This document shows, piece by piece, positions 11,083 through 42,017 of a DNA stretch of 64,000 nt; positions within the stretch are counted from its first letter, which is position 1; each line of letters begins with the position of its first letter. Under the pieces are notes generated by a model. It was not told the origin of the DNA. It saw only the letters and a list, made by a program, of their open reading frames with translations, and searched no databases. Origin of the DNA: Promethearchaeota archaeon (lineage in GTDB: Archaea; Asgardarchaeota; Lokiarchaeia; Sigyniarchaeales; SOKP01); assembly GCA_016840085.1 (NCBI GenBank), contig JAEOTA010000081.1, forward strand, positions 64,001 through 128,000. Direction: 5' to 3'. The position numbers and the translations under genes were made by a program.

Positions 11083-13360
11083 CCCAATAAAGAGGAGTTT
11101 CCACCCCTTTCATCGTTTTTGATGATAATATTTTGTTTAAATAATCGAGAGTGTAATATTCTTCTAATTCCTCTTTTGATAATTGTCCAAATAAATCTCC
11201 TCCCTTGTTTATTATATATTCACCTGCGAAAATAATATAGACATCTGTATTATAATCACTTTTAATTTTACTTAAGATATTAATGCCACTCTCATTGATA
11301 TGGTTATTAGGAGGAAATAAATCAGTTTCATTTTTCAAAAAAATAAAATTCTCATTATAAGTAAACGAACCATCTTGATCACTAAAAAGATAATCATAAT
11401 GATTAAATACATGATTCCATCCAACTTTAGTAAAGATAACATTTTTATCCACAGTGTTATTTGAATACCATTGAATAGAACTTGCATCCCTCTTCTTTAC
11501 ATCAAAAACTTCATAACTGACTGACTCATAAAAATAAGATGTAAATAATGAAAATGATATTATCATTAAAAAGGTAAATTTTAGTCTAAAGTTTTTAAAT
11601 TTGTTTAACCTTATAAGCTTATATATATACGAAATAAACCCAATCACAATAAATGGAGGTATAAGATATAGAATTCTTTGCCAAATCAAATTACTAAGAA
11701 TAAAAACGTTAAAAATAAAACCTATTGCCAATAATATAATGAGACTTAATCCCCAAATAAATATCGGTTTTCCTCTTGGCTTTTTTTGAAATAGAATCAT
11801 TCCCCATATAGAAAATGCGCTTATTAATATAATTTCAGTTACATAGAATATATTAATCATTTCTATTTTAAGCCAGAACAAGTTTACGATCAATAAAACA
11901 ACTACAAGGAGAATCAAAATACTTAAAATTAGTGGAATTATTATTCTGTCTTCGATTCTTTTGTAAAAATTATTTCCTTCTCCTTTAATCACAGATGAAA
12001 ATCTTCCTTTAGTAAAAATGATTGATTTTTGTAATCTCCAGAATAAAATAGCTCCAGCTGTAACCCCGGCTATAATCATAAATAGTAAGAGATACCATGA
12101 GATATTGAATGGAATTAAAAACCAATAATGTCCACTTCCAATTCCAAAATAACTTAATACTAAAAAAATCCCTAATAATCCTACTAAAAAGATTAAGTCA
12201 AAACCGCGCTTGTAATCTTTCAAAAAATAAATAAAATATAACCATAAATAAGAGATTAAAAATATTATAGATGTGACTACGTGCGTAAGAACAGCACTAA
12301 TAAAGATTATCGTAATTATTATATAAAAGAAAGAAATGTTTGTAAGAATGTCTTTTCTCTGTGGGCGTTCTACTTTAATAAAATTTTGTAATCGTACATA
12401 TAGAAGGAAAAATATAGCTAGACATTTAATTAACGCGGAACCTGAAGGCCAATATTGAAGCATCATTGTAGAGAAGCCTAGCGAAGAAAACTCTAAAATA
12501 AATACACTAAGAAATGCTAGATTCCGATTTTTAAATATTCTTAAAGATATATTATAGAAAACAAGAGCAGAAAGAAAGAAAGTATAAAATACCAAAAATT
12601 TTGGTAAAAGTACATGATTCAAACCAGAAAAAAAATTGATTACTGCTCCAAAAATACTTAAACCCATTTCTCCATGATATTCTTTAATAGGAATAATATT
12701 TTCACTTGTTATTCTTTGGCTATTAAGAATATGAAGCCATGGATCAGTTCCACCAAAATTACTAAATTTAAAAATATTCATAATACAGATTAAGAAGATA
12801 AAAATTATTAAGAGGATGCCATTTAGAGGTATGTTGTCTTTGAAAAATTTATATAGAGAGAACTTATTGATTTTTTCATGTTTATTTTTCAAATACTCTT
12901 TAGATTTAATGAAATTATATAATCCTTTTTTCCATTCACCAAATATTATAATAATTATTAACAGTAAAAAAAATATTAAAGTAAAAGAAAAGAAAAAAAA
13001 CCCTATAATTGGAATACCTATCCAATATCCAATATAACCTATAAAAATGTAAAAAGCTGAATTAATAACTATTGTTAGACTTAATTTTTCTAAAAAACTA
13101 AAATTCTGCTTTTTCATTAGTATGAAAAAGATGGGGTAAGTGGGTAAAAATAATAAAGCAAAAATGGTACTAATAATTACACTCGATTGAAAAAGATATT
13201 CAAGAATAAAGATATCTGCTATACCTAAAAAAGTAGTAAAATTAATTAATTTAAAAAAAATGAATGTAAAAGAAACTATAGAAATTATAAAAATAAATAG
13301 ATTTATTCTTGAATAAATGGAAAGTAATGCTGTGGTTATTTTATTTTTAATATTATTCAT
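11075..13360 (-). CDS. Polytopic membrane protein, probable GT-C-fold glycosyltransferase (paralog of 36665-38950)
   Basis: Many TM segments, loop motif GGTDPWLH, soluble C-terminal domain ending PLYWVI; 761 aa, same length as the paralog. Confidence 0.6.
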   Translation of the reverse strand: MNNIKNKITTALLSIYSRINLFIFIISIVSFTFIFFKLINFTTFLGIADIFILEYLFQSSVIISTIFALLFLPTYPIFFILMKKQNFSFLEKLSLTIVINSAFYIFIGYIGYWIGIPIIGFFFFSFTLIFFLLLIIIIIFGEWKKGLYNFIKSKEYLKNKHEKINKFSLYKFFKDNIPLNGILLIIFIFLICIMNIFKFSNFGGTDPWLHILNSQRITSENIIPIKEYHGEMGLSIFGAVINFFSGLNHVLLPKFLVFYTFFLSALVFYNISLRIFKNRNLAFLSVFILEFSSLGFSTMMLQYWPSGSALIKCLAIFFLLYVRLQNFIKVERPQRKDILTNISFFYIIITIIFISAVLTHVVTSIIFLISYLWLYFIYFLKDYKRGFDLIFLVGLLGIFLVLSYFGIGSGHYWFLIPFNISWYLLLFMIIAGVTAGAILFWRLQKSIIFTKGRFSSVIKGEGNNFYKRIEDRIIIPLILSILILLVVVLLIVNLFWLKIEMINIFYVTEIILISAFSIWGMILFQKKPRGKPIFIWGLSLIILLAIGFIFNVFILSNLIWQRILYLIPPFIVIGFISYIYKLIRLNKFKNFRLKFTFLMIISFSLFTSYFYESVSYEVFDVKKRDASSIQWYSNNTVDKNVIFTKVGWNHVFNHYDYLFSDQDGSFTYNENFIFLKNETDLFPPNNHINESGINILSKIKSDYNTDVYIIFAGEYIINKGGDLFGQLSKEELEEYYTLDYLNKILSSKTMKGVETPLYWVI

Positions 13361-13374
13361 CTTTTTTAAAGGAT

Positions 13375-14346
13375 TTACGATATCTGTAAATCTATTTTAT
13401 ATTTTTGACTATGCCATGTAAAATACTCTCTCAATCCTTCTTCTTGTGTATATTTTGGCTGGTAATTTATAATTTTTTTAGCCTTAGAAATATCACCAAA
13501 ACTATGTAATATATCACCAGGCCGAGGATCTGTATATGTAATCTTTAAATCTTCTCTGTTTGTTAATTTTAAAATCAATTTTGCGAGATCTGTTAATTTA
13601 ATTGGAGAACCAGCTGCTATATTTAAAATTTCACCTTTTATATTATGCTCAACAGCTAATATATTAGTCTGAATTACATCTTCAACATAAGTAAAATCCC
13701 TTGATTGCTCTCCATTACCAAATATTATTAGATTCTTATTATTGATGAGTCTTCCTAACCAAATTGCGATTACCCCGCTATAAGTTGAATCCTTTTGTCT
13801 TGGACCAAAAACATTAAAATATCTCAAAGATACTGTCTTTAATCCATAAATTTGATAATATACCTGCATATACGCCTCACCAGTCATTTTAGATACACCA
13901 TAAGGAGAAATTGGTAAACAATTCATATCCTCCCTTTTAGGTAATTCAGGACTATCTCCATATACTGAAGAACTTGACGCAAAGATGATCTTTTCGACAT
14001 CCATTTTCCTGGCTGCATTTAAAATGTTTAATGTACCATTCACATTAACATCATTGCATGATTCTGGCATTAATATTGATTGAGGTACACTAGTAAATGC
14101 TGCTTCATGATATATGATGTCAATATCTTCAAAGATTTCTAATAAAAAGTTTAAATCTCTTATATCCCCTTTTTTAAATTTAAAATTTTTGTGTTCTAAA
14201 ACATTTTCTAAATTGTCTAAACTGCCATTAAATAGGTTATCAACACCTATTACTTCTGCCCCTAATTCAATTAATTTACTTGTTATATTACTTCCGATGA
14301 ACCCAGCAGCTCCAGTAACAAGAATTCTTTTATCTTCAATTTTCAT
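13375..14346 (-). CDS. NAD-dependent nucleotide-sugar 4-epimerase (WbpP/GalE-like extended SDR)
   Basis: TGAAGFIG, SSSSVYG, YGVSK, LRYFNVFGPRQ and SRDFTYV motifs. Confidence 0.9.
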   Translation of the reverse strand: MKIEDKRILVTGAAGFIGSNITSKLIELGAEVIGVDNLFNGSLDNLENVLEHKNFKFKKGDIRDLNFLLEIFEDIDIIYHEAAFTSVPQSILMPESCNDVNVNGTLNILNAARKMDVEKIIFASSSSVYGDSPELPKREDMNCLPISPYGVSKMTGEAYMQVYYQIYGLKTVSLRYFNVFGPRQKDSTYSGVIAIWLGRLINNKNLIIFGNGEQSRDFTYVEDVIQTNILAVEHNIKGEILNIAAGSPIKLTDLAKLILKLTNREDLKITYTDPRPGDILHSFGDISKAKKIINYQPKYTQEEGLREYFTWHSQKYKIDLQIS

Positions 14347-14475: not shown

Positions 14476-15627
14476 TTAGCGTGAATCCGTTAAATATTTC
14501 ATAAATTCTTTTTTATACTCTTTTGGAAGTTTATCTGGTCTTTTTAGGTCTGAATCAGGACTTACTTTAGTTTTAATCAAGATCATAATTGGACCTTCTC
14601 GATTTTTAATATCTTCTAATGATTCTAATAATTTCTCTTTAGATTCTATTAAAATTCCTAATTTGTAATTTGATGCCAAGGCTATATTAGTGAATTTAAC
14701 ATTGGGAGAATTTGTAGGTTGACTTCCTGTAGATTCATGAACTTCATTATCTAATATAATATGAACGAAGTTTGTAGGTGAATACTTTCCAATCGTTGTA
14801 AAAGCCCCCATTTGCATAATTGTTGCTCCATCTCCATCAAATACAATTACTCTTTTATCTGGCTTTTGAAGAGCTATACTTAATCCAATAGAACTAGCGC
14901 ATCCCATTGATCCAATATTATAGAAACTTTTATTATGTTCTTTTTTTCTTGATTCTCTATACTCAAATAATTTTCTTGAAATATATCCTGTGGTAGAAAC
15001 AATAATTTCATCATTAGTTAAATTATTCATAATTAACTCTATTACTTCTTTCGTTGTCAATGAATAATTATTTAATGATTTTTTTTTCATTTCATAAAAT
15101 TGAAAGAAATTTCGTCGAAAAATTAAAGCATATGGACCATTTTCTTTCTTAAGATACTCAATTACCTTCTTAATCTCGTTTTTAATTAAAACTAAATCTG
15201 GTTTAAGGATAGTATAAGGAATTTGCAATGTATCTAATAATGGGAGCATAATTTCACCCATTTTCTTATGTTGAGGTGCATCAATTTTATCAGGTTCACC
15301 TCTCCACCCAATCATTAAGAGAACAGGAATTGAGTATACTTCTGGATCACATAATGACGTAATAGGATTGATTGTCTTCCCAAATCCAGAATTTTGCATA
15401 TAAACAATTCCTATTTTATTTGTTGCTAAATGATAACCAGAAGCAATAGCAATAGCTTCACATTCATTGCAAGCAACAACATTTTTTAGACCTTTTCCAT
15501 CATTATCAGCTAAGTATTTCATCCAATCTTTAAATGTGGAATCAGGGATTCCAGTAAAGAAAGTAAAATCAAAATTTTTTAAAATTTCAAAAAAATCCTC
15601 GCACCTAATCATTTTTATCATCAACAA
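14476..15627 (-). CDS. aepY: Phosphonopyruvate decarboxylase (TPP-dependent)
   Basis: TGIPDS, YMQNSGFG, GWRGEP..DAPQH, GSMG, GDGA..MQMG and HESTGSQP motifs; lies in an operon with PEP mutase. Confidence 0.93.
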   Translation of the reverse strand: MLMIKMIRCEDFFEILKNFDFTFFTGIPDSTFKDWMKYLADNDGKGLKNVVACNECEAIAIASGYHLATNKIGIVYMQNSGFGKTINPITSLCDPEVYSIPVLLMIGWRGEPDKIDAPQHKKMGEIMLPLLDTLQIPYTILKPDLVLIKNEIKKVIEYLKKENGPYALIFRRNFFQFYEMKKKSLNNYSLTTKEVIELIMNNLTNDEIIVSTTGYISRKLFEYRESRKKEHNKSFYNIGSMGCASSIGLSIALQKPDKRVIVFDGDGATIMQMGAFTTIGKYSPTNFVHIILDNEVHESTGSQPTNSPNVKFTNIALASNYKLGILIESKEKLLESLEDIKNREGPIMILIKTKVSPDSDLKRPDKLPKEYKKEFMKYLTDSR

Positions 15628-15635
15628 ATAAAGAT

Positions 15636-16352
15636 TTAATTATTTTTTTTAAAATACTGCTTTGCTTTTTCTAAATCTTTGTGATCATCAATTTCAATAC
15701 AAAATTCATTAAAAAAACAAGGTTTTAAAACTATTTTATCTAAAATTTCATTTAGTGCATCTTCAGCATAGCAATTTACCTTATTATAGCTTACAAAAAT
15801 TTCTATTTGTTCAAACCATTGTTTCATAAATTCTTTTGATAATTTATATAATGGAGCTAAAAATGCTGTTTGTGGTCCTGACAAATCTACTCCTATCTTA
15901 TATATCCTATTATTTAAAATATTTGCTTTAAAGTCCTTCACGGGAGGGGGAATCTCTTTATTTACTAATACACAGTTTATATCTTTAGAATCAACTAAAA
16001 GCTTTATCAGATTTTCAGAAATTATTAAATCTCCATGAGAAATCAAAATATCATCAGTAATAACATCTCGAGCTAAATAAATTGAATATATATAATTGGT
16101 ATTTTCATAACGGGGATTATGAATAAATTGAACTTCAATAGAAGGATAAAACTTTTTAATATAGGATTTAATTTGATTCTCAAATGGACCAGTTGGAATT
16201 ATAAACTCTTTAAAGTTAAACTTAACGATGTTTCTTATTTGATAATCTAATATTGTTTCGTCATTATTAATTTTAACAAGGCATTTAGGCTTATTATTAG
16301 TTAATGGCGCTAATCTTTTGCCAATCCCTGCGTTTAACAATATCACTTTCAT
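15636..16352 (-). CDS. LicC/PntC-like cytidylyltransferase (NTP transferase)
   Basis: LNAGIGKRL..PKCL, NYIYS, HGDL and EIDDHKD motifs; ATGA overlap with the upstream reductase. Confidence 0.88.
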   Translation of the reverse strand: MKVILLNAGIGKRLAPLTNNKPKCLVKINNDETILDYQIRNIVKFNFKEFIIPTGPFENQIKSYIKKFYPSIEVQFIHNPRYENTNYIYSIYLARDVITDDILISHGDLIISENLIKLLVDSKDINCVLVNKEIPPPVKDFKANILNNRIYKIGVDLSGPQTAFLAPLYKLSKEFMKQWFEQIEIFVSYNKVNCYAEDALNEILDKIVLKPCFFNEFCIEIDDHKDLEKAKQYFKKNN

Positions 16353-17509
16353 CTTATATCATTTAAGATTTTCCTTAATTTTGTTTCTGTAAGTAAACGA
16401 GGATTATTTTTTACTCTTTCAGGATTGAATCCATTTTTTATAATTAATTCAATATCCTCCTGAGTCTTAATATGCAAATTCTCTAATTTTATTTCTAATC
16501 CAATATTTATTATTAAATTTCTAATAATTTCTCGTGCTTCGATAAAATCTGAAGCACCAATTATTGAAATTAGTTCTTTCATAACCTTTTTAACATATTC
16601 AACTCCACGTGAATCTATTATATCATCTTCACTCACATCTGAATTAAAGACAATCATAGAAGGTAAAGTCAAAGCAACTGCATGTCCATGAGGTATATTA
16701 AAGTATGAAGTAATAGGATATGAAATAGCATGACAAGCAGTCGTTTTTGTGATGTTTATTGCTTTTCCAGCATAATTTGCCGCAATTACCATATTATACC
16801 TAGATTTTTTATCAGGGGTGTTAACAGCTTTTATTAAATTATTTAATATAAGCTCAATTGCCTTCTTCGCATAGTTTTTTGATTCATCAGTAGAATTTAT
16901 ATTCCAAAAAGATTCAATAGCTTGAGTGAGTGCATCTAAACCGGAAACAGCAGTGTTTTTTTTCGACAAGCTGTATGTAAACTGAGGATCGACAATCACA
17001 TATTCTGGTTGTAAGTATTCTGGTTCTGCTAAAGAATATTTATCTTTATCTATGTAAACAACAGCAAAATGAGTTGCTTCACTCCCAGAACCTGCTGTTG
17101 TTGGAATCCGAATTAAAGGTATGCCTTTTTTTTTTATTTCTTTTTTTTTTACGATAAGATCTATAGGAGAATTATCATTAGTTGATAAAATTGAAATAGA
17201 TTTTCCCATATCTAAGACTGATCCTCCTCCAACAGCGATAATTACATCAAAATCTTGGCTTTTAAATAAGTCTAATCCTTTTTTTATATCATTTAATTTT
17301 GGATTTGGAGAAAAATCATTGAATTGGATATAATCATAATTTTTGAGAATCTTAAGAAGCTTTTCTTTTATAATAGTCTTCTCAAAAGAATCTTTTCCTG
17401 TTATTAGGAATATATTTTTAAAGGTATTCTTTCTTAAAATCGTCTTTAATTTATTAATAGAGTTAAATCCTAAATATTCTATCATTTTTGTGTTATATTT
17501 ATTAATCAA
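16349..17509 (-). CDS. Phosphonoacetaldehyde reductase (Fe-containing ADH, PhpC/FomC-like) producing 2-hydroxyethylphosphonate
   Basis: GGGSVLD, PTTAGSGSE, DALTQAIES, TTACHAISYP and IPHGHAV motifs; between pepM and ppd. The real start may be the ATG of MIEYLG. Confidence 0.87.
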   Translation of the reverse strand: MINKYNTKMIEYLGFNSINKLKTILRKNTFKNIFLITGKDSFEKTIIKEKLLKILKNYDYIQFNDFSPNPKLNDIKKGLDLFKSQDFDVIIAVGGGSVLDMGKSISILSTNDNSPIDLIVKKKEIKKKGIPLIRIPTTAGSGSEATHFAVVYIDKDKYSLAEPEYLQPEYVIVDPQFTYSLSKKNTAVSGLDALTQAIESFWNINSTDESKNYAKKAIELILNNLIKAVNTPDKKSRYNMVIAANYAGKAINITKTTACHAISYPITSYFNIPHGHAVALTLPSMIVFNSDVSEDDIIDSRGVEYVKKVMKELISIIGASDFIEAREIIRNLIINIGLEIKLENLHIKTQEDIELIIKNGFNPERVKNNPRLLTETKLRKILNDIR

Positions 17510-19206
17510 ATTAATCTTTCAGCAAATTCAATATCTTTCTTATTATGAATCTCAATCCAACCTTTATGTACTTCCAAAATGTCTACTTGAAAACCTCTAT
17601 CTATTACTTCTTGTATAAGATCAACAAATGATGCTTTTTCAAATGAATCTGCTTCATGGAAATTTCCTTTGTGATTCATTTTGCAATCATTATATATCCT
17701 TCTGATTATCTCGACCCCATATTCTGAGAAGTAAGCTATTCCGGCAAATTCATAATCCGCCATGTCTTTATTAATACTCCTTCCTATTCTGAAAATCTTG
17801 TTCTTTATTTGATATAAATCTCTGGTTTGTTCACTTGGCTTACTTTTTGTAAGAACAAGTTCAAGAATTTTATCAATTTTATGCTTGTGATAAGTGTAAG
17901 AATTATCCAATACCAATATAATATCTCCTTTTGAATTGAGCAGGTTTTTTATTATTTGTTCATTAAACAATATATCAGAGTAAATAAAAATAAACCCTCC
18001 TCCCATATCCCATTCAGCTTTAAAGAGAGAATGTAAGATGTAATACTCATCATATTCATCATTATCAATGTATTTTATACCATCAACTGTAAATTCCTCT
18101 TTTTTATAACCTCTAATAACAATTATATCGTTAATACCACAATTTTTTAATGTCTCTATTTGTCTTTGGAGAACAGGCTTACTTTTTAAAAGCGTCATCC
18201 CCTTCGGAATATTAAACTCAGGATCACTTCCAGCAGCAGGGATAATTACTTTTATAGGACTTTTAATATATTTTAAATCTTTTTCTTTTACATCCAAAAA
18301 ACCAACATCTTTAAAAACGGTTTTAACTGGGCTGCACATAGATTCTGCTTCAAATGCCCTTTTATTCCTTAAAATTATTGAAGCAGTTTCCTTCATAGCT
18401 TTATGAGCAGCTCGTAAAAGATGATTAGCATATATTACTATATTAAATCCATGCTCTATTAGTTCTTCCTCTGTAATAGTATTATAAGTGGTAGGGACAC
18501 ATACTAAAGGTTTTCTAAATCCTAATTCTTTTGTTAATTTTTCATATTCTATAGCAAAATTAAGGATTTCTTTAGGATCTCTCTGTTTAGAATGAATCAT
18601 TATTCCATCTGCACCTGCTAATAAATATTTCTTAGCTCTATAAATAGCATCTCTTAATCCTGAACCTGCTATCAAGCTTTCAATACGTGCTATAATCATA
18701 AAATCATCAGAAATTTGAACTTCCTTCCCTCTTTTAATTTTTGTAGCAAATATATCCGGATCTGCTTGATCTTGGATTGTACCCCCTTCAAGGCTATTTC
18801 TTTTAGGGAATTTCTTATCCTCAATAATAACCATTGAAACGCCCATGTCTTCTAATGCTCGAATAAAATATTCGAAATTTGCAGCTTCTCCACCAGTGTC
18901 TCCATCAATTATTATTGGTTTATTTGAGCTATTTAGAATTTGTCTAATTGTTTCATATCGAGATTCAGCACCTACAAGCTCAATATCTGGATATCCTTTA
19001 GCAGCACTATCTGTAAAACTACTAGCCCAAAATCCATCAAACTCACGAATTTCATCTTTGTAGTGTTCTTTTATATTATTAGCGATAATTGCACTTAATC
19101 CGTTATGAGCTTCTATAATTCTAATAAAACTTTTTTTTTCAAGTAAATCTTTTAGCATTCTTCTTCTTACATTTGGTAAGATTCTACTTGTTAGCTTGAA
19201 TTCCAT
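17506..19206 (-). CDS. aepX: Phosphoenolpyruvate mutase fused to a C-terminal LicC-like nucleotidyltransferase domain
   Basis: PepM signature EDK(X5)NS present as EDKKFPKRNS; also EAHNGLSA, DGDTGG, ARIESLI and IYANH. GGTGGTGA SD precedes ATG 19206. Confidence 0.95.
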   Translation of the reverse strand: MEFKLTSRILPNVRRRMLKDLLEKKSFIRIIEAHNGLSAIIANNIKEHYKDEIREFDGFWASSFTDSAAKGYPDIELVGAESRYETIRQILNSSNKPIIIDGDTGGEAANFEYFIRALEDMGVSMVIIEDKKFPKRNSLEGGTIQDQADPDIFATKIKRGKEVQISDDFMIIARIESLIAGSGLRDAIYRAKKYLLAGADGIMIHSKQRDPKEILNFAIEYEKLTKELGFRKPLVCVPTTYNTITEEELIEHGFNIVIYANHLLRAAHKAMKETASIILRNKRAFEAESMCSPVKTVFKDVGFLDVKEKDLKYIKSPIKVIIPAAGSDPEFNIPKGMTLLKSKPVLQRQIETLKNCGINDIIVIRGYKKEEFTVDGIKYIDNDEYDEYYILHSLFKAEWDMGGGFIFIYSDILFNEQIIKNLLNSKGDIILVLDNSYTYHKHKIDKILELVLTKSKPSEQTRDLYQIKNKIFRIGRSINKDMADYEFAGIAYFSEYGVEIIRRIYNDCKMNHKGNFHEADSFEKASFVDLIQEVIDRGFQVDILEVHKGWIEIHNKKDIEFAERLI

Positions 19207-19405
19207 AATCACCACTTATAAGTCCAGATAAAAAATTATTTTAAATATTCTCTTATATTTTCTAATTAACTTGCTTGATGTCTATTACTAATTAAAGATT
19301 AGAATTTATACAATTATCTTAGTAAATTAAGATTAATTAGGTTTTTCTTTTAATATATTATTTAAAATGTGGAAATGAGAAAAAAATTATTAATAATTTT
19401 ATGTG

Positions 19406-20719
19406 TTATAAATATTCCTTTCTCTCTGGCATACTTTTCCAATCAACTAAAAGAACTAAACCACCTACTAGAGCCACAATTATCCAAAGCATAAAAGCAG
19501 CTCCAGAACCTGCCGTATCAATGAGAACACCTGAAGTAAAAGTTGTAATTGCTGCGCCAATATATCCCCACCCATCAATAAACCCCGTGGCGGCAGATGC
19601 TGCTTTTCTTGTACCAAATTCCATTGGTATTGTAGAAACTAATAGAGCGTGGGGAGCAAAGTTTAAAAAACCAATTAAAATCAATACTGGAATCCCAAAA
19701 ACCATATCAAGTGGAGGAAGCAATGTATATATAACTAATGTCAAGGATAATGCTATAAAAAGAAGTGAAATAACAGGAATTCTTCTTTTATTGAGAAATT
19801 TATCTGAAAACCAAGCACCGATAATAACCCCAATTACTCCCCCAATTGGGTAAAAAATTGATTTCCATATAACAAAATATTCCGCACCTGTTATTTCAGG
19901 GCTTAATAAATATGGGAGCCAATCTGTTAAACCATATCTAACCATATTTAAACAAAATAACCCAAAGGAAGCAAAAAGAACCGTTTTTGTTTTAATAATT
20001 GTGCCAACTGTGTATTTAAAGCCTAGAAATTCATCATCATGACATTCACCCATTACAATTTTACCCTCACATTCCTCCTCAAGAGTTGGGAAACCAACCT
20101 CTTCAGGAGCATTTCTACTACGAATGTAAAAATGAATCGCCATGAAAAACATGATAAATCCTGGAATAATAAATGAAAATCTCCAATTTAGCCCAAAAGT
20201 ACCAGTAATAAGTATTGCAATTAGCCATGCTATAACACCTCCAAATAAATATGATGTAGCAAGTCTACTTGACCATTTCCCTCTTTCGTCTGGAGGATAC
20301 CAATTGGCAATGGTTTTTACAGAAGGAGCCCATCCCATTGCTTGAAAATATCCATTTAATCCCCAAAGCAGAAATGCCAACCAAATGAATTCAAATGCAA
20401 CCCCCATAAATAAATTTATAATAGAAGATGCAATTAGACCCAAAGTTATAAAACGTCTCGCGCCAATTTTATCACCTAAAAACCCATTAAAAAATTGTCC
20501 AAAAGCATATGCTAAGAAAAAACAAGTCCCTACAAATCCCATAATAGTTGCGGAGATTCCATACTCCGACATGAGATATGGTTTTGCTATAGACAAATTT
20601 GTACGACCTATATAATAAATCATATAGGTAATCCACACCGTAAAAAATATTCGATTTCGCCAACGTTTAAATGCTTGTTTTGTTTCAATCTCACTGTTTA
20701 AACTTAATTTTTCATCCAT
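19406..20719 (-). CDS. MFS organophosphate:phosphate antiporter family (GlpT/UhpT/PgtP-like)
   Basis: YYIGRTNLS, NGYFQAMGW, WYPPDERG, PEEVG, RYGLTDW and ATGFIDGWGYIG motifs of the OPA family. Confidence 0.88.
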   Translation of the reverse strand: MDEKLSLNSEIETKQAFKRWRNRIFFTVWITYMIYYIGRTNLSIAKPYLMSEYGISATIMGFVGTCFFLAYAFGQFFNGFLGDKIGARRFITLGLIASSIINLFMGVAFEFIWLAFLLWGLNGYFQAMGWAPSVKTIANWYPPDERGKWSSRLATSYLFGGVIAWLIAILITGTFGLNWRFSFIIPGFIMFFMAIHFYIRSRNAPEEVGFPTLEEECEGKIVMGECHDDEFLGFKYTVGTIIKTKTVLFASFGLFCLNMVRYGLTDWLPYLLSPEITGAEYFVIWKSIFYPIGGVIGVIIGAWFSDKFLNKRRIPVISLLFIALSLTLVIYTLLPPLDMVFGIPVLILIGFLNFAPHALLVSTIPMEFGTRKAASAATGFIDGWGYIGAAITTFTSGVLIDTAGSGAAFMLWIIVALVGGLVLLVDWKSMPERKEYL

Positions 20720-20749
20720 ATTTTTAATACCTCTTCTTAATTAAAAGTT

Positions 20750-21514
20750 TTATATTTTTCCTTCTTTTATTAATTGTTTTGCATATTCATAATCTTCGTC
20801 AGTATCCAATTCAACCCATCCTCCCTCAATATCTACTGAATAGATAGAATATCCCCTAATAATAAGTTCCTCAAACATATCTGTTAAATAAGCTTTTTCA
20901 ATCGTAGTAGAATCATGGAAGCGTCCTGTAAACTTACAGGTTTTATTATTTTTTGCCCGATTGTAATTCCGGGTAAAAATCTCTGCTCCTTTTTTAGAAA
21001 TTTTTCCAAGGCCTATAAATTCTCCATAAGCAACATTGGGATTATAAAATTTAGAAAGGTGAGTTATTTTACCTTCTTTTACTAGAACTAATTCAGCTTC
21101 ATCTGTAGGATGCTTTGTACGTCCCTCATATCTTTCTCTCCAAGCTGTATCTACTACAAGGCTAAAATCATGAGCGGAATCAAGTAGTTTTTGAACAACT
21201 TCTTTGCTATAAAGGATATCTGAATATGTGAATATGAATTCATCAATCATCTCTGGCTCAGCGTAAAAAAGTGATTCTAAAATATTATTGTTATAAAAAT
21301 TATCATTATCATAATACCTAATATTTGGAAGATTAATTGTTTCTTTCTGATATCCTCGAATAATGACAATATCATTAATACCACAACTATAAAGAACCTC
21401 TAAAGTCCTATCAAGAATTGTTTTTCCTTCTATTTCTAGTAGACATTTAGGTTTGTAGTCTGTAAAGGGTCTTAATCTAGTACTAGGCCCTGCTGCTATA
21501 ATAATAGCTTTCAT
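20750..21514 (-). CDS. LicC/PntC-like cytidylyltransferase
   Basis: IAAGPSTRL..KPKC, NNILESL, YSDILY, GEFIG and WVELDTDED motifs. Confidence 0.9.
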   Translation of the reverse strand: MKAIIIAAGPSTRLRPFTDYKPKCLLEIEGKTILDRTLEVLYSCGINDIVIIRGYQKETINLPNIRYYDNDNFYNNNILESLFYAEPEMIDEFIFTYSDILYSKEVVQKLLDSAHDFSLVVDTAWRERYEGRTKHPTDEAELVLVKEGKITHLSKFYNPNVAYGEFIGLGKISKKGAEIFTRNYNRAKNNKTCKFTGRFHDSTTIEKAYLTDMFEELIIRGYSIYSVDIEGGWVELDTDEDYEYAKQLIKEGKI

Positions 21515-21683
21515 ACTTGAATACCTATTTTAAACATTTAATTCTAAGTAAAATATAAAATACAAAATATTTGTATAAAAAATTAATTATTCAATTAAAT
21601 CCTTTTGAAATTATTTATAATCTGCCTTCAAATTAGTTTTAAGAGATGGTATAAATAAATTACTTCTTGTTAAGAATTTTAAA

Positions 21684-23213
21684 TTAAGGATAATGTTTTC
21701 TTACATATTTATTAAAATAAAGAGGAAAGTATAAAATCCATACAACTATTTCTTTCCATCTTTGGGACAATTGTTTTCTTCGGGCTATAATTGACCGTAT
21801 TACAAACTTTAAATATCCGGTATTTTTAATCTGATTAGATACATCATTTAATTCTGTGTCTAAGATAATGAAACGTTTAGTGAACTTTTTATACCTACGG
21901 AACAACTTTTTTAATCCATAACCAGTTAATCTATTAAAAATTAGAATTGTAATGAACTTTTGATTTTTAGATGAATAAAAATTTTTAGTTTCAGATGGGT
22001 TTATCATAGAATTATTGATTTTAAGCTTTTCTCGAAGAAATTTCACTAATTGGGGTGGAAATTGATAAGGAATTAAGACATTCTCAAATTTCAATGTGGT
22101 TAAAATGCTTTGTTCATAGAGTGTATTCAAAATGGATTGAAACGTCCTGTAAGCTTTTGATTCTGTCTTTTTATAAAATTGAAATAATTCATCATATATG
22201 ATTGGATATTTTTCCTTTACATCTTTTTTCTCCAGATAATCTTCATACAAATTGTATAAGGCAAACTTTCCATTGTCATTAACTAATTTCCAATTATCCT
22301 GAATTATCATTGTTTTTTTGATAGATTGAAACATTAAGTAACAATCTCCTCTAACTTTTCTGTTCTTATTAACATCAACACCTTTTTCGATTAAATCTTT
22401 AAATGATTTTGATTCTCTCTCATGCGTAGCTTCAAGATTTAGATAATCAAGAATAGTTTCTATAATGTCTATTAAATAAACTCTATTTTTGATTCTTTTA
22501 GGAGGAGAATTCGTCAGAATTAATGGCAACTTGATAAAAAAAACTGGTTGCATAGAAGATTGATGTATATCATCAAAATGTAATAATTTAGTTTTTTTAT
22601 ATAAATTCTTATCATAATAACCATGGTCAGAGTTGATAATGATAATAGAATTATCCCAATAATCTTTCTTTTTTAAATAATCTATTATTTTGCTTAAAAA
22701 TAAATCAGTTTGAGGGTCACTTGGTCTAAAAAATACAAAAAGGAAATTGTTTTTATAACGGTTAAGTTCCTCAACCTTTTTGATAAATAAGTGATATACT
22801 TCCATCGCATTTAACCAGTGATCTCCTTTATGCAGGTCCTCTTCATAATATGGATTGAGAATTTCTTCAAAAACTATTACTTGCTCTCTTCCAAACAATA
22901 TTGATTCAATATTATAATCTTCTTTTCTTAAAGGAGCAATATTATTTTTAGATTTTAAACTTGGAAGGTTTTTGATTGAACGAAAATAGTCAGGAAATAC
23001 AAAATAGGGGAATCTTCCGGTTAGAAATGAAAAGAGCGATAAGTTTGTTGAGGAAAATTGAGAAATACAATCTTCAAAATAAAAACCTTCATTACAATCT
23101 CTTAGTTTTTTATATATTGGAAGCAACCCATGTAGATCAGATCTTTCATAATTGCAGATTGAATCAGTGACTATCCAAAAAATATTCATTGGGACACCTT
23201 TTTTTAATATCAA
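21684..23213 (-). CDS. Alkaline-phosphatase-superfamily (sulfatase-like) hydrolase/transferase
   Basis: NIFWIVTDS, SSTNLSLFSFLTG (no CxPxR), INSDHG, IDIIETILDYL and LYNL..D..E motifs. Confidence 0.75.
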   Translation of the reverse strand: MILKKGVPMNIFWIVTDSICNYERSDLHGLLPIYKKLRDCNEGFYFEDCISQFSSTNLSLFSFLTGRFPYFVFPDYFRSIKNLPSLKSKNNIAPLRKEDYNIESILFGREQVIVFEEILNPYYEEDLHKGDHWLNAMEVYHLFIKKVEELNRYKNNFLFVFFRPSDPQTDLFLSKIIDYLKKKDYWDNSIIIINSDHGYYDKNLYKKTKLLHFDDIHQSSMQPVFFIKLPLILTNSPPKRIKNRVYLIDIIETILDYLNLEATHERESKSFKDLIEKGVDVNKNRKVRGDCYLMFQSIKKTMIIQDNWKLVNDNGKFALYNLYEDYLEKKDVKEKYPIIYDELFQFYKKTESKAYRTFQSILNTLYEQSILTTLKFENVLIPYQFPPQLVKFLREKLKINNSMINPSETKNFYSSKNQKFITILIFNRLTGYGLKKLFRRYKKFTKRFIILDTELNDVSNQIKNTGYLKFVIRSIIARRKQLSQRWKEIVVWILYFPLYFNKYVRKHYP

Positions 23214-23330
23214 TTTTAATGTTTTTAATTATTTGAGTATAAATGCATTCAATGATTAATTAAATGATAAAAATTTATTGCATTATACTTAACTCTTAAA
23301 ACTATTATTCTAACTTAATTACTCACCATT

Positions 23331-24443
23331 CTATTGTTGCAAACATTTTTTATATGTATCTAAAACAGTTTGTGCGCTCTCTTTCCAGGAAAATTTCTTG
23401 ACTCTTTCAAGACCCTTATCTATTAGATTATTCCGTAAATTTTTATCACTAATTATCTGAAAAATTTTATTCGCAAGTTCATTTGGATCCCTATTATCAT
23501 TTAAAATTAGGGCAGCATCTCCTACAACTTCTGGAATAGCAAAAGCATTTGATGTAATAACTGGGCAACCACAAGCCATAGCTTCTATATTGGGTATACC
23601 AAATCCTTCGAAAAATGATGGAAATACAAAAACTTCGGCTAAATTTAAAAGCTCAATAATTTCTTCTCGAGAAATAAAGCCTGTAAAAATGATATCTTTA
23701 AGTATATTCTTTTTTTTTGCAAATTCAACTACTTTTTGATTTTTCCATCCTTTCCCTCCCAAGACAAATTTTAGATCTATTTTTTTTTCTTTTAGAATTT
23801 GAAATGCATTTAGCATTATCCAAGGGTTTTTTCTCACAGAATATTTACTCAAATGAAAAATAAAAGGTTTATCTATTCTAAACTTTTTTTTAGCTTTTAT
23901 TGGATTATCTTTATATTTTTTGAAATCCTTGTCTACAGAGCTATGAGTAAAAAAGATTTTATCTTTTTTCACATGGTATTGATTAGTAATAAAAAATTTA
24001 CCTGCTTTTGAACCCACAAATATGTAATCCATTTTTCGAATATAAAATGGCTTAATAATTCTTGTGTGCAACACTTTAATTTTAGAATATTGATATGGAA
24101 AATAGAATTGCGCTGCTCCTCCTCCATGGATTGAAGTAATTTTTTTTGGTTTTCTTAACCAAATAGGAGAAAATATAGTTATAGGGTAAAAATGAAGAAT
24201 ATCAAATTTTTCCTTTATAAGCTTAATTGTTGCTAATAATGGATTTTTAGAAATAATAAGTTGATCTGCTTTTTTATAAATTTCATTATTATTTCTCGAG
24301 TAATGTATAAGTACAATATGAAATCTATCATTAATATTTAAAATATTATTAACTAACTGTCTTAAATAACTACCACTTCCACTTGTTCCTTGATCTATTG
24401 GTTTTGTAAAAATCCCTACTTTTGGTCGGTTATTTGATTTCAA
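23331..24443 (-). CDS. GT4 glycosyltransferase
   Basis: RKN, FPSFFEGFGIPNIEAMACG and FSW motifs. Confidence 0.92.
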   Translation of the reverse strand: MKSNNRPKVGIFTKPIDQGTSGSGSYLRQLVNNILNINDRFHIVLIHYSRNNNEIYKKADQLIISKNPLLATIKLIKEKFDILHFYPITIFSPIWLRKPKKITSIHGGGAAQFYFPYQYSKIKVLHTRIIKPFYIRKMDYIFVGSKAGKFFITNQYHVKKDKIFFTHSSVDKDFKKYKDNPIKAKKKFRIDKPFIFHLSKYSVRKNPWIMLNAFQILKEKKIDLKFVLGGKGWKNQKVVEFAKKKNILKDIIFTGFISREEIIELLNLAEVFVFPSFFEGFGIPNIEAMACGCPVITSNAFAIPEVVGDAALILNDNRDPNELANKIFQIISDKNLRNNLIDKGLERVKKFSWKESAQTVLDTYKKCLQQ

Positions 24444-24472
24444 CTTTATTTTAACATTTCTTCGATTCGTAA

Positions 24473-25279
24473 TTAATCATATTTATTCGTAGATTGAAAA
24501 ATCTTGATAATATCCTTTTCAAAAGTTTTAGCTTTAATAATTATAAATGATGAAAATACAATAAACATAAAAATAGTGTAAACTATCATAATAATTTCTA
24601 ATATCTGTAAATAACCAAAATTCATATATAATAAGAAGCCAATGAAAAATACTGTTATAATGATATAAGGATGACTAAAAGCATTAACAAGATTAATAAT
24701 TAAACCTTTTATAAATTTAATAATACCTTTTTTTGACGATTTAAATTCGTTACTTTCTATTTTTCGATTAATAATATTTCTGATTTCACTCTTAGTAGAC
24801 GCTATCATGGCTATCTTACGGATTATTCTTATTCCTAATAAGAAGTAAGATGCTATTGCTCCTAAAATTATGTATAGAAATTTTGTATTGATATTATAAA
24901 TGCTATAACCAAGAGCAAAGAAAAATAATCCCAGAAAGATTAAATGTCCAATCTCATCGTAATAAATTCCTCGCAATGAAATTTGTTTTTTATATCTTGC
25001 AATCTCCCCGTCTACTTCATCAGAGATATAATATAGATATAATAATATAAATCCAAGGATAATAAAAAAGTTGTTACCTACCCCAATCAATAATAATCCT
25101 ATTAAACCAATTATAATACCGAAAACTGTAACAAAATTTGCAGTAATTGGGGTTTTTACTAATATCCAGGTGATATAAGGAGAGATAAAGTGAGGAAGAG
25201 AGTGCCACCAAGCTTTTTTTCTTTTTGTTCTTTCTAATTTTTTTCCCTGACAGATCTTTTTGAATTCTTTAAATTTCAT
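24473..25279 (-). CDS. CDP-alcohol phosphotransferase family membrane protein
   Basis: TANFVT and DEVDGEIAR(x8)GIYYDEIGH motifs; multiple TM segments. Confidence 0.87.
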   Translation of the reverse strand: MKFKEFKKICQGKKLERTKRKKAWWHSLPHFISPYITWILVKTPITANFVTVFGIIIGLIGLLLIGVGNNFFIILGFILLYLYYISDEVDGEIARYKKQISLRGIYYDEIGHLIFLGLFFFALGYSIYNINTKFLYIILGAIASYFLLGIRIIRKIAMIASTKSEIRNIINRKIESNEFKSSKKGIIKFIKGLIINLVNAFSHPYIIITVFFIGFLLYMNFGYLQILEIIMIVYTIFMFIVFSSFIIIKAKTFEKDIIKIFQSTNKYD

Positions 25280-25350
25280 CTCGCATTTTAAAAGTATTTT
25301 AATTTATAATATACTCACAAATTTTTCGAAAAATAAATTATTTATCAAAA

Positions 25351-25377
25351 TCTTCAAATCATAAATTTAATTTGAAA
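25351..25377. repeat. Recurring intergenic motif TCTTCAAATCRTAAATTTAATTTGAAA, copy 1 (TTCAAAT-N10-ATTTGAA inverted repeat)
   Basis: 26/27 identical to 35602-35628; partial copies near 26551-26574 and 26639-26661. Confidence 0.7.
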
Positions 25378-25432
25378 CTCATTATTTTTTTTTAAAATGA
25401 ATTAAAAATTTCAGAGATTTTTTACTTTTAAT

Positions 25433-25582
25433 ATGAAAGCTGAAAATATTGAGAAACAGCTATCTAAAGATAATACAGAGTACAAAAATTTAGCTACTAA
25501 TACATTTTACTCGATTTTAAAGAATTTCTGCAAGTATATAAAAACTTTTTTAGGAAGTTTAAATTACCAACACCAGAAATAA
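25433..25582 (+). pseudogene. Truncated 5' remnant of a flippase paralog
   Basis: Reads MKAENIEKQLSKDNTEYKNLATNTFYSILK, matching DNTEYRNLATNTFFS (26724) and RNLAKNSFYSIL (39067); stops after 49 codons. Confidence 0.8.
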
Positions 25583-25626
25583 AATCATTATGTAAAATAT
25601 TTTAATTCTTTATATATAGGTTAAAA

Positions 25627-26295
25627 ATGAATAATAGAGTTTTTATTTTGTGCGCAGGAGAATCCACCAGATTTGGTGGCAAAGCAAAGCAATTGATTAA
25701 AATAGATGGGGAAGAAATTTTAAGACGAATAATAAGAGTTTTAAAGCATTATGAAAGCATTAGCGAAATTTTTATTATAACCCATCGTGATGATATTAGA
25801 AACAATATAAAAGAATTAAATGACAATAAAATACACTTTATAAACCCATCAAAAAGGAGATATACGCTTGAGTCGATGCTATCCACCCAAGATGAATGGG
25901 TTGATAGAAATATTATTTTACTTGGAGATGTTATATTTTCTAAAAATGGTTTAGAAAAAATATTAAATTCTAAGAAAGATTTTTGCTTTTTTGGAAGAAC
26001 CAAGCCTTATAAATATACCTTTAAAATAGAACAGGAGATCTATGGCATAATAATCCCCTTTAGCGAAAAAGAAAGAAGAATAAAAGATTCTCTTGAAGCA
26101 ATAGAAAATTCTACGGGAAAAAATAAAGGAAAGCTAAATAGTCTTTTTTTCTATTTAGAAAAACAAGAGAAAAGCAAAAGGTTTTTTCGTGAAATAAATT
26201 GGGTTGAAATTAACGATACAACTGAAGATATTGATTCTAAAGAAGACTTAGAACAATTTAAGAAAAATATAATAGATAAAAATTTATTAGATTGA
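25627..26295 (+). CDS. Nucleotidyltransferase (NTP_transf_3-like)
   Basis: ILCAGESTRFGG..KQL, LLGDV and EDIDSKEDL motifs. Confidence 0.8.
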   Translation: MNNRVFILCAGESTRFGGKAKQLIKIDGEEILRRIIRVLKHYESISEIFIITHRDDIRNNIKELNDNKIHFINPSKRRYTLESMLSTQDEWVDRNIILLGDVIFSKNGLEKILNSKKDFCFFGRTKPYKYTFKIEQEIYGIIIPFSEKERRIKDSLEAIENSTGKNKGKLNSLFFYLEKQEKSKRFFREINWVEINDTTEDIDSKEDLEQFKKNIIDKNLLD

Positions 26296-26723: not shown

Positions 26724-28352
26724 ATGACGAATCAGTCAGCTAGAGATAATACAGAATATAGAAATTTAGCTACAAATACATTTTTTTCCTTTATGTTTAA
26801 TTACAGTTCTCTTTTTTTTACATTCATATATTCATTTCTTTTAGCACGATTGTTTACTGACGCTTTGTGGGGGCTTCTAATATTGGCTACATCATATATC
26901 ATAATAATAGTAACCATTACCTCTTTATTACCACCAGGTCTTAATTTTGTGTTAAATTATTATATTCCAAGATATCTAATATTAAATGAAAAAGTTAAGA
27001 TAAAATCTTTAATTAGAAATTCAGTTATAGTAAAATTTTCTTTTTTAATTCCTATTTTCATTATCAGCATTCTCTTATTTAATATATTTAGCTATTTTTT
27101 TATAGATACTTTGGTATCTCTTTTTTTTATTTTATCCCCCCTCATTTTCATAAATAATTTTAACTTAATTGTTTTAGCAATAAACCGTAGCTTTAATAGA
27201 TTTAATTATAATTTCTTGTTCTTAGTATTGAAAAATTGTATTCATATTATACCTCTATTTATATTTTTTATTTATGAAATTAATATTGAAATAGAGATTG
27301 CTGCTTGGATAGTATTAATTTCAAGTATAATTCCCTTTTTGCTAAACTCTCTATTTGTATTTATAATGGTTTATAAAATTAAACCAATCGGAAATAAACC
27401 CGATTCATTTAAAAAAGATGTATCTAAAACGTTTAAATATGGTATTTATATAGGATTTACTGATCTTATCGAAAGACTTTCGAGGGAAGCACAACTTCAA
27501 GGAATTGGATTTGTAATATCACCAGATGTTGTTACAGGTTTTAATATCGCTAGAAATTACCAAAAATTAGGTGAGTATTCAATTGCATCTTTTCATTTTC
27601 CATTATTAACTTCTTTTACAAAACTGAACACAAAGGAAAATTATGAACAAATAGATATGATTTATAGAGTTGCTTATAAAATAACATTATTTCTATTGTT
27701 AATTATATCCGGAATTTTATTCTTTAGTGTTGAATTTGTTTTAGATTTTGTATTTCTTGAAGCGCGTTTAATATATTCGAATTTACTCCGTTTAATCGTA
27801 CTTGCTTCTATTTTTCAAGTTTTAGCGATTTTTGTACAAAGCCATTTCAATGCTCAACATAAAGTAAAATTATCATTATTTTTAAGAATATTCTATACTT
27901 CAATTAGTATTCCATTATTTTTTATAGGACTTTACTTTTTTGGGGTCGAAGGAGCAATATTATATGGATTAATTGTAGGGAGCATTCTTTCAATGGTTAT
28001 TCAGATTTTTGCAACCTATAAATTTGGAAACATCAAATTAAATATTAAAGGTATAATACTCCAATATATAACATTTTTTGTTCCGTTAATTATCACAATT
28101 TTCTTAAAAGAACTTATATTTAAAGATGCTACTTCAAACCTAATAGAAAATTTAGGATTATCACATTTTAAAAAATTAGACTTTCTATCTATAGGTACAT
28201 TCCTTATCCTCTTTATATTAATGAATTTAATTCTTAAAACTGTTACCTCTTCAGATATTAAATATTTTGAATCTTTCTTAAATAAAGAAAGATTTTTTGA
28301 TAAATATATGTTAAAAGGTCTGAATATCTTAAAGAGATTTACGAGAGATTAG
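26724..28352 (+). CDS. Oligosaccharide flippase (Wzx/MOP superfamily)
   Basis: About 14 TM segments; LLARL...WG and GVEGA motifs; paralog of 39067-40728. Confidence 0.8.
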   Translation: MTNQSARDNTEYRNLATNTFFSFMFNYSSLFFTFIYSFLLARLFTDALWGLLILATSYIIIIVTITSLLPPGLNFVLNYYIPRYLILNEKVKIKSLIRNSVIVKFSFLIPIFIISILLFNIFSYFFIDTLVSLFFILSPLIFINNFNLIVLAINRSFNRFNYNFLFLVLKNCIHIIPLFIFFIYEINIEIEIAAWIVLISSIIPFLLNSLFVFIMVYKIKPIGNKPDSFKKDVSKTFKYGIYIGFTDLIERLSREAQLQGIGFVISPDVVTGFNIARNYQKLGEYSIASFHFPLLTSFTKLNTKENYEQIDMIYRVAYKITLFLLLIISGILFFSVEFVLDFVFLEARLIYSNLLRLIVLASIFQVLAIFVQSHFNAQHKVKLSLFLRIFYTSISIPLFFIGLYFFGVEGAILYGLIVGSILSMVIQIFATYKFGNIKLNIKGIILQYITFFVPLIITIFLKELIFKDATSNLIENLGLSHFKKLDFLSIGTFLILFILMNLILKTVTSSDIKYFESFLNKERFFDKYMLKGLNILKRFTRD

Positions 28353-41986: not shown

Positions 41987-42017
41987 AGTTTCAATAATGA
42001 AATTAAATGTTTTCTCT

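Follow-up and report, generated by a model that had tools for sequence, protein, structure and literature searches.

Which phosphonate is made by a pepM locus that lies amid surface-glycan genes of an Asgard archaeon, and where does this compound end up? The locus in question extends from position 14476 to 26295 of the DNA stretch analysed here (hereafter the window: 64,000 nucleotides, positions 64,001 to 128,000 of contig JAEOTA010000081.1, assembly GCA_016840085.1). It contains a quartet of biosynthetic genes, a transporter gene paired with a second cytidylyltransferase gene, and a gene of the alkaline phosphatase (AP) superfamily. We consider it likely that the locus attaches 2-hydroxyethylphosphonate (HEP) to a surface glycan, most probably to the lipid-linked precursor from which protein N-glycans are made.

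The source genome (4.68 Mb, 29.5% GC) is that of a Lokiarchaeia (Promethearchaeia) archaeon. The closest pepM loci are found in metagenome-assembled genomes of Promethearchaeota (68-96% identity), and the flanks of the locus are syntenic with those of the relative G024 at 73-96% identity. Because the flanking genes are syntenic with relatives, the contig is regarded as native to the genome, and a contaminant contig was rejected. Two cultured species with complete genomes, Promethearchaeum syntrophicum (strain MK-D1) and Candidatus Lokiarchaeum ossiferum, belong to the same order as the host.

The biosynthetic quartet and its product

14476-15627, minus strand: phosphonopyruvate decarboxylase Ppd, fused alpha/beta type (TIGR03297, 420.6 bits, cut-off 312.5)
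15636-16352, minus strand: cytidylyltransferase 1, LicC/PntC-like, predicted CMP-HEP synthase (PF00483/PF12804)
16349-17509, minus strand: phosphonoacetaldehyde reductase of the iron-containing alcohol dehydrogenase (Fe-ADH) family, PhpC/FomC type, metal-dependent (PF00465 and PF25137)
17506-19215, minus strand: phosphoenolpyruvate (PEP) mutase PepM with a C-terminal NTP-transferase domain, the latter probably non-catalytic (TIGR02320, 349.3 bits, cut-off 319.55)

These four genes form the constant unit of HEP-type loci. In PepM, the motif EDKxxxxxNS is present as EDKKFPKRNS, and the protein scores far under the cut-offs of the phosphonopyruvate hydrolase and PrpB models; concerning Ppd, the ComD/E models likewise remain under their cut-offs. 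The Fe-ADH gene, whose stop overlaps the start of cytidylyltransferase 1 by 4 bp, was called from 17509, the likelier start being 17485 (378 aa). The enzyme passes no curated subfamily model (TIGR03405, PsrA: 193 against a cut-off of 423.7). Its NCBI-named homologues at 57-74% identity are all called phosphonoacetaldehyde reductase, as are the best two plasmid matches, the names given by JGI being generic; moreover, being a PF00465 enzyme whose gene lies in one cluster with pepM and ppd, it agrees with the definition of the PhpC/FomC type used in PMC8942020. Cytidylyltransferase 1 invariably accompanies the other three genes as the fourth gene of the de novo quartet, and its GxGxR...PK and EID motifs are intact in all 24 homologues printed. 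Both stand-alone cytidylyltransferases of the locus retain the GxG(T/S)R...PK loop, Arg15, Lys25 and the metal-binding Asp; one non-catalytic loop position is P in cytidylyltransferase 2 and K in cytidylyltransferase 1.

A transaminase leading to 2-aminoethylphosphonate (AEP) was found nowhere in the genome above the cut-off, the best TIGR03301 score being 44 bits against 360.8. This negative has power, since the same model scores 437-445 bits on the genes that occupy the place of the reductase in the sister genus g27. For MpnS or HepD there is no candidate among the annotated open reading frames of the window, a genome-wide model search for them not having been made. Given the PepM and Ppd cut-offs, the names of the reductase homologues and the lack of an AEP transaminase, HEP is the most likely product and CMP-HEP its activated form, and as far as gene content can tell it is very probable that the locus makes both. 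Judged from family membership, PepM would convert PEP to phosphonopyruvate, Ppd phosphonopyruvate to phosphonoacetaldehyde, the Fe-ADH phosphonoacetaldehyde to HEP, and cytidylyltransferase 1 HEP to CMP-HEP.

An earlier note on this stretch, made from the sequence without database searches, had placed all ten open reading frames at the positions and on the strands found here. Its Asgard assignment, its calls of pepM and ppd, and its failure to see an AEP transaminase or MpnS/HepD in the window are borne out by the results above, and its proposal of HEP biosynthesis with CMP activation in an Asgard surface-glycan locus is well supported. It overlooked the C-terminal NTP-transferase domain of PepM (residues ~324-569). 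This domain is 37% identical to cytidylyltransferase 2, its closest paralogue; Lys25 is kept, but the equivalent of Arg15 is absent, a loss which lowers the activity of PntC to <10% (PMC6697681). Of 120 homologues, 119 have His or Asn instead of the Asp of the EID motif (the remaining one has a gap) and none has D; the host has His. The fused domain is thus probably a non-catalytic copy, perhaps with a regulatory role.

A split ComDE-like (sulfopyruvate decarboxylase) gene pair exists elsewhere in the genome (G000, contig C71, 33997-34994) and recurs in MK-D1 and in almost every genome of the genus.

Distribution of pepM

The profile search across Asgard genomes with synteny and phylogeny that the earlier note had suggested revealed pepM above the cut-off in 42 of 400 genomes, 31 of them among the 135 of the host's family, with modular loci and two types of PepM: that of the host's family carries the C-terminal NTP-transferase domain, and that of the cultured species a Fom1-like N-terminal cytidylyltransferase (CyTase) domain. 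The PepM of L. ossiferum (UYP47934; locus L019, near NEF87_004217) is named 2-methylisocitrate lyase in GenBank. In the supplement of PMC9834061, the PepM of both cultured species is auto-annotated as K23999; the orthogroups of the Nature 2023 paper are merely auto-annotated, in its supplement. In four RNA-library runs from a single study, the L. ossiferum operon is covered by contigs that break in the divergent intergenic region; this is a weak hint of expression, as such contigs give no expression level and carry-over of DNA is possible.

In genus g27 (L126, 13003-14118; L147, 6253-7359; L129), the order is pepM, ppd, cytidylyltransferase and AEP transaminase, the reductase being replaced; the transaminase passes the TIGR03301 cut-off in both loci tested, such that this constitutes an AEP version of the locus. 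Short PepM-family genes under the cut-off occur in other contexts in L032 (G059) and L033 (G027).

A matching N-glycan residue in Promethearchaeum syntrophicum

MK-D1 carries the pathway (CyTase-PepM QEE15795, Ppd, Fe-ADH and a cytidylyltransferase) and, about 305 kb from pepM, a glycan cluster with cytidylyltransferase 2, the transporter of the OPA family and the AP enzyme. For this strain, three dominant N-glycans of 801.30, 909.30 and 1212.40 Da have been reported (PMC11284389): the 801.30-Da glycan ends in an N-acetylhexosamine (HexNAc), in whose place the 909.30-Da glycan has an unassigned residue of 311.08 Da. A HexNAc esterified with HEP has a computed residue mass of 311.0770, which results in 909.2991 for the whole glycan as compared to the published 909.30. 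Among CHNOPS increments within rounding, C2H5O3P is the sole plausible one, and the only sugar-like formulas of the whole residue that fit 311.08 are C10H18NO8P and C9H17N3O7S. As the increment of +108, AEP (908.32), methylphosphonate (879.29) and phosphoethanolamine (924.31) were rejected by the glycan mass, isethionate because it is 30 ppm off (311.0675 / 909.29), and hydroxymethylphosphonate, phosphonoacetate and taurine by mass as well. We hold with good confidence that the 311.08-Da residue is HexNAc-HEP, and with equal confidence that HEP ends on a glycan.

The string 'phosphon' does not occur in the text of PMC11284389, and within a literature search of limited coverage of subscription papers no publication was found that links Asgard archaea or Promethearchaeum to phosphonate, to pepM or to a reading of 311.08 as HexNAc-HEP. 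The third glycan of MK-D1 contains an unassigned residue of 303.10 Da, a mass that HexNAc plus C4H4O3 (succinyl or methylmalonyl, 303.095) matches only marginally.

Modularity of the locus and a putative salvage pair

19406-20719, minus strand: OPA-family antiporter of the major facilitator superfamily, GlpT/UhpT/AepP-like, proposed phosphonate importer (GlpT 1pw4, E 4e-43)
20750-21514, minus strand: cytidylyltransferase 2, LicC/PntC-like, partner of the transporter (best PDB matches LicC 1jyk and Treponema denticola PntC 6pd1)

GlpT is the nearest solved relative of the OPA-family protein, in which both phosphoryl-binding Arg are retained and the positions of K80 and H165 are changed; the protein stays under every curated subfamily cut-off. 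A proven phosphonate permease of this family is AepP (PMC8316502). Of the 61 genomes examined, 13 have the transporter and cytidylyltransferase 2, and in all 13 the two genes adjoin each other. Only the quartet is present in G012 and G025, and only the transporter pair, the quartet being gone from the same slot, in G002 (100% complete), G016, G032 and G224, three of which keep remnants of ppd; G014 was left out of the latter group, as its quartet genes are located on another contig. G024 has lost both supply modules, fragments of cytidylyltransferase 2, pepM and ppd being left (L034, 9574-10411), and its AP enzyme is intact. Between one and the same set of flanks, which are mostly 80-96% identical, members of genus g28 have either the quartet (G267) or the pair (G241, G263).

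The locus is modular, consisting of a quartet for making the compound, a separate module of transporter and cytidylyltransferase, and alternative transferases. The earlier note had described a complete system of biosynthesis and transfer: the HEP trunk and CMP activation stand, but the nine genes do not constitute a fixed unit, since modules swap, and completeness of the transfer system is something that we infer. Because quartet and transporter pair swap in the same chromosomal slot, a salvage role is proposed for the pair, and we regard this role as probable; the simplest reading suggested by the swaps is that of two supply routes, synthesis or salvage, to one CMP-phosphonate. By this gene swapping, the antiporter would import external HEP in exchange for phosphate and cytidylyltransferase 2 would activate it, in a Lic-like salvage without a kinase.

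A NUDIX-type gene is found beside the transporter in both cultured species (MK-D1: L106, 10729-11295, checked with Pfam; L. ossiferum: L019, 13902-14489, motif seen); it might serve the clean-up of nucleotide-activated donors.

Candidate transferases

21684-23213, minus strand: soluble AP-superfamily protein with Thr nucleophile, candidate HEP transferase (PF00884; AlphaFold2 model)
45867-47084, plus strand: TagF-like protein of the CDP-glycerol glycerophosphotransferase family, rival transferase (PF04464, 292.7 bits)

The AlphaFold2 model of the AP protein (pLDDT 93.5) exhibits the sulfatase/AP fold and an extra C-terminal domain of ~150 aa. The nucleophile is T47, counted from a probable ATG at 23186; in the family, this position is T in 90 and S in 37 of 129 members and never Cys, and DHG and His are invariant. 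Because of this T/S, a formylglycine sulfatase is ruled out. The (C/S)xPxR motif, on which identity as a formylglycine sulfatase or a phosphonate monoester hydrolase would depend, is absent, SSTNLS being found instead, and Arg is not among the common residues at its Arg position in the family. With LtaS and EptA the protein shares the AP fold, the Thr nucleophile and the D/DH/H metal ligands, but it lacks their N-terminal membrane domain: it has no transmembrane segment, and no stretch exceeds a hydropathy of 0.96.

In genus g1, the AP enzyme occurs in 17 of 17 pepM-positive genomes, in 18 of 19 transporter-positive ones (in the exception, the contig ends at that point) and in none of the 31 genomes without either route, G024 being the only genome that has it without either, all of these being counts that are confounded by physical linkage and kinship and do not amount to a statistical test. 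Less dependent support comes from MK-D1, whose orthologue (QEE16070, 49% identity) lies with the salvage pair, and from more distant relatives. Concerning 11 more distant relatives (25-31%), three are located in or adjoining pepM operons and five beside a nucleotidyltransferase (two of these in one shared context, and one of the nucleotidyltransferases TagD-like); the other three are uninformative, the neighbourhood being too short in two and lacking pepM or a nucleotidyltransferase within 5 kb in one. Four family members are fused to GT4.

We moderately favour the soluble AP enzyme as the HEP transferase, for which it is the best candidate; since MK-D1 has both an AP and a TagF-like gene and the host three TagF-like genes, the assignment is held no higher. 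It would move the phosphonyl group from CMP-HEP via a Thr-linked intermediate to a hydroxyl of HexNAc, presumably while the glycan still faces the cytoplasm, flipping and attachment to protein following later.

In an O-antigen-type cluster that contains no pepM (L140, 3603-9378), a distant AP gene follows genes for an aldolase, an FGGY kinase, an Fe-ADH and a nucleotidyltransferase, a context which suggests that polyol phosphates carried by CDP donors are transferred by the AP family as well. DUF6564 (PF20202) genes beside AP genes (L116, 5296-6093; L117, 9158-9952; L118) encode LicC-like nucleotidyltransferases, 24-29% identical to cytidylyltransferase 1.

The TagF-like gene, which the earlier note had overlooked, is situated ~20 kb from the cassette. 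Genera g18, g27 and g28 usually have a TagF-like gene beside the quartet or the transporter pair, where it replaces the AP gene; this suggests that AP and TagF are two unrelated enzymes for one step. LicD was found in none of five genomes searched.

Neighbouring genes and the glycosylation island

11075-14346, minus strand: sugar-nucleotide epimerase and 761-aa protein with multiple transmembrane segments, conserved downstream anchor (synteny)
23331-24443, minus strand: GT4 glycosyltransferase, common but not constant neighbour (PF00534; synteny)
24473-25279, minus strand: CDP-alcohol phosphotransferase-like membrane protein, variable passenger (PF01066)
25627-26295, plus strand: divergent NTP transferase (PF12804)
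26724-28352, plus strand: Wzx-type flippase at the locus border (PF01943)

On the minus strand, the genes are transcribed in the order CDP-alcohol phosphotransferase, GT4, PF00884 (AP) protein, cytidylyltransferase 2, OPA-family transporter, pepM, Fe-ADH, cytidylyltransferase 1 and ppd, followed by the epimerase and the 761-aa membrane protein; NTP transferase and flippase are divergent. The downstream anchor is kept with or without phosphonate genes at the locus. In the CDP-alcohol phosphotransferase (PF01066, 28 vs 22 bits), three Asp of the motif DxxDGxxAR...GxxxDxxxD are present and the fourth is His; no orthologue was found in P. syntrophicum or in the 99%-complete, pepM-positive G012. 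Among the loci examined, the divergent NTP transferase occurs only in the host and in Loki_b32. Both genes are variable passengers. In the comparison of window positions 23331-26295 with Loki_b32 (L046), GT4 is 96%, the CDP-alcohol phosphotransferase 89% and the NTP transferase 91% identical, the neighbours being 58-85% identical, which suggests a recent exchange of this trio as a block.

The remaining window is a glycosylation island of glycosyltransferases, flippases, epimerases and the TagF-like gene, at whose borders a small GTPase (3134-3658) and an Arf/Roc-type GTPase fusion (7778-9577), both typical Asgard genes, are located. Three large proteins have no Pfam or NCBIfam matches (11075-13360, 36665-38950, 43563-45578); the first, the conserved locus anchor, clearly has multiple transmembrane segments and is possibly GT-C-like. 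A 580-aa protein (55430-57172) contains a GINT1_N (glucosamine inositolphosphorylceramide transferase-like) domain and shows weak similarity to formyltransferases. An FrhB-like dehydrogenase gene adjoins one of the polysaccharide pyruvyl transferase family (40742-43370), and two short open reading frames on the same strand (57496-58295), the second corresponding to the C-terminal half of a GT4, possibly represent a broken glycosyltransferase.

Alternative explanations

Several observations weigh against the proposed fate of HEP and the proposed enzyme. The glycan masses are given with two decimals, a precision at which C9H17N3O7S fits too, mass is blind to isomers of the phosphonate (ethyl phosphate, or methyl phosphate where the HexNAc itself is methylated), and the masses were obtained from a relative outside the family of the host. 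The PepMs of these two families do not form one clade (approximately unbiased test, p = 6e-5), and a single origin of Lokiarchaeia pepM was rejected; no donor is claimed, the tree being unrooted and thinly sampled among bacteria. The complete genome of L. ossiferum possesses quartet and salvage pair, yet no match to AP, TagF or LicD. Besides the three TagF-like genes of the host, there is the single one of MK-D1, which lies ~3.6 kb from cytidylyltransferase 2, and in the module swap of g28 the adjoining TagF is only 56% identical, thus having been exchanged with the module. EptA, LtaS and glycosylphosphatidylinositol (GPI) transferases use lipid donors, and we know of no characterised AP-superfamily transferase with a CMP-activated donor.

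The 311.08-Da residue might not be a phosphonate at all but an isomeric alkyl phosphate, a sulfoethyl-HexNAc or C9H17N3O7S, HEP then going elsewhere, e.g., into a secreted small molecule. The two-decimal masses, the lack of a recognisable transferase in L. ossiferum and the split ComDE-like genes of MK-D1 and most relatives, which could feed isethionate, would be consistent with this; however, isethionate misses the mass by the 30 ppm mentioned, no intermediates of +80, +94 or +14 appear among the dominant masses, the clusters are not surrounded by peptide or antibiotic tailoring genes, and the mass of HEP is the one predicted by the genome, such that we consider this explanation unlikely. Still less likely, and improbable on the whole, is a phosphonolipid formed by joining CMP-HEP to archaeol through the CDP-alcohol phosphotransferase, either as end product or as lipid donor of the AP enzyme in a relay of the EptA/LtaS kind. 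The phosphotransferase gene points the same way as the rest of the run and many g1 loci contain it, and AP transferases with a Thr nucleophile normally take lipid donors, but the gene is not beside the AP gene in G024, G025 and G012, the AP enzyme has no membrane anchor, and MK-D1, which lacks the gene, appears to have the HEP-glycan nonetheless. Because the fourth Asp is His and an orthologue is missing in MK-D1 and G012, the lipid route is not regarded as core. Of the earlier suggestion that surface glycans or lipids are decorated, the glycan part gains from the 311.08-Da residue of MK-D1, whereas the lipid part finds no backing in a phosphotransferase that MK-D1 and G012 do not share.

With HEP on glycans, the transferase could nevertheless be a TagF-like protein (45867-47084 or its paralogues), the AP enzyme acting as a hydrolase that removes or recycles HEP. 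TagF-like genes directly flank quartet or pair in g18, g27 and g28, the only one of MK-D1 is near cytidylyltransferase 2, the donor of TagF is CDP-activated, and phosphonate monoester hydrolases have the AP fold. Nevertheless, the fully complete G002 has salvage pair and AP enzyme and no TagF match, the TagF-like gene of the window is distant, AP and TagF alternate as neighbours instead of co-occurring, and AP relatives sit behind donor-making nucleotidyltransferases and are fused to GT4; the TagF assignment is a minority possibility. A similarly low probability is given to transporter and cytidylyltransferase 2 handling another organophosphate (e.g., glycerol phosphate or phosphoethanolamine) for an alternative decoration instead of salvaging HEP. 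The OPA family carries mainly phosphate esters, one AP relative follows a kinase-reductase-nucleotidyltransferase operon without pepM, and in g28 the TagF adjoining the pair differs from that adjoining the quartet. Against this, both g1 and L. ossiferum have the pair as neighbour of pepM, the PepM-fused domain has no closer paralogue than cytidylyltransferase 2, the AP enzyme is common to genomes with the quartet, the pair or both, phosphonates are carried by OPA members as shown by AepP (PMC8316502), and no glycoform of +154 or +123 is among the three dominant masses of MK-D1. We retain HEP decoration of glycans, with synthesis and salvage as supply routes, as the likely explanation. Taken as a whole, the reading that Lokiarchaeia put HEP on an N-glycan HexNAc (the 311.08-Da residue) through new soluble AP-superfamily transferases with a CMP-activated donor, and that lineages alternate between producing HEP themselves and taking up that of their neighbours, is tentative, falling somewhat short of an even chance.

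Implications

The chemistry and archaeal pepM clusters are already known. New are the group of hosts, the probable acceptor (an N-glycan for which a matching mass has been published), a salvage module that can be swapped, and a candidate family of transferases. If true, this would be the first phosphonate N-glycan in archaea within the literature searched, and a structure is proposed for the unassigned sugar in the sole glycoproteome of a cultured Asgard archaeon that was found, the raw data of which are public (PXD051006). Lokiarchaeia, as anaerobes of the sediment, would then join the producers of HEP-glycans, which form a major class of marine organic phosphonate. Furthermore, a candidate enzyme family is named for the poorly known step past CMP-phosphonate, and the make-or-scavenge polymorphism in surface decoration would be as expected under recognition pressure by viruses or partners.

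Comparison with known systems

In the early fosfomycin pathway, according to the summaries in PMC6697681 and PMC13576164, CMP-HEP is formed by Fom1 (CyTase-PepM), Fom2 (Ppd) and FomC (PhpC-type reductase). The three reactions and the cytidylylation are the same here, and the PepM of P. syntrophicum and L. ossiferum is Fom1-like, whereas in the host the PF12804 domain of PepM is C-terminal and apparently inactive, a cytidylyltransferase being encoded separately; the host locus moreover lies amid glycan genes without those for the methylase and epoxidase. Rice et al. (2019, PMC6697681) found the PepM-PF12804 fusion in roughly one third of their PepMs, and the bacterial Pnt clusters described there share this fusion, LicC-like cytidylyltransferases and the surface-glycan context; however, characterised PntCs take AEP and LicD-like transferases are proposed to act next (PMC6697681), whereas the host has HEP as predicted substrate, no LicD and a soluble AP-superfamily candidate.

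Glycomyces and Stackebrandtia have phosphonoglycans (Yu et al. 2014, as cited in PMC8942020) which resemble the proposed product in the HEP ester on a glycan and in the trunk of pepM, ppd and PhpC; they are bacterial exopolysaccharides, whereas the host would modify an archaeal glycan, probably a protein N-glycan, and has the salvage module in addition. Nitrosopumilus maritimus likewise possesses an archaeal trunk of pepM, ppd and reductase leading to a surface polysaccharide, but its methylphosphonate requires the O2-dependent MpnS, absent from the annotated host-window reading frames, and the mass shift in MK-D1 is +108 (HEP) and not +78 as for methylphosphonate.

Equally to choline salvage by LicB/LicA/LicC/LicD, the proposed route consists of import, cytidylylation and transfer, but without a kinase. 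AepP (PMC8316502) is an OPA-family phosphonate carrier as well; it is catabolic, whereas the host transporter, the proposed importer, is paired with a cytidylyltransferase, and the C-P lyase PhnJ was found in none of five genomes searched. The AP protein, finally, shares fold, metal ligands and Thr nucleophile with LtaS, EptA and the GPI ethanolamine-phosphate transferases, and differs from them in its lack of a membrane anchor and signal peptide, in its extra C-terminal domain and in its proposed nucleotide-activated donor.

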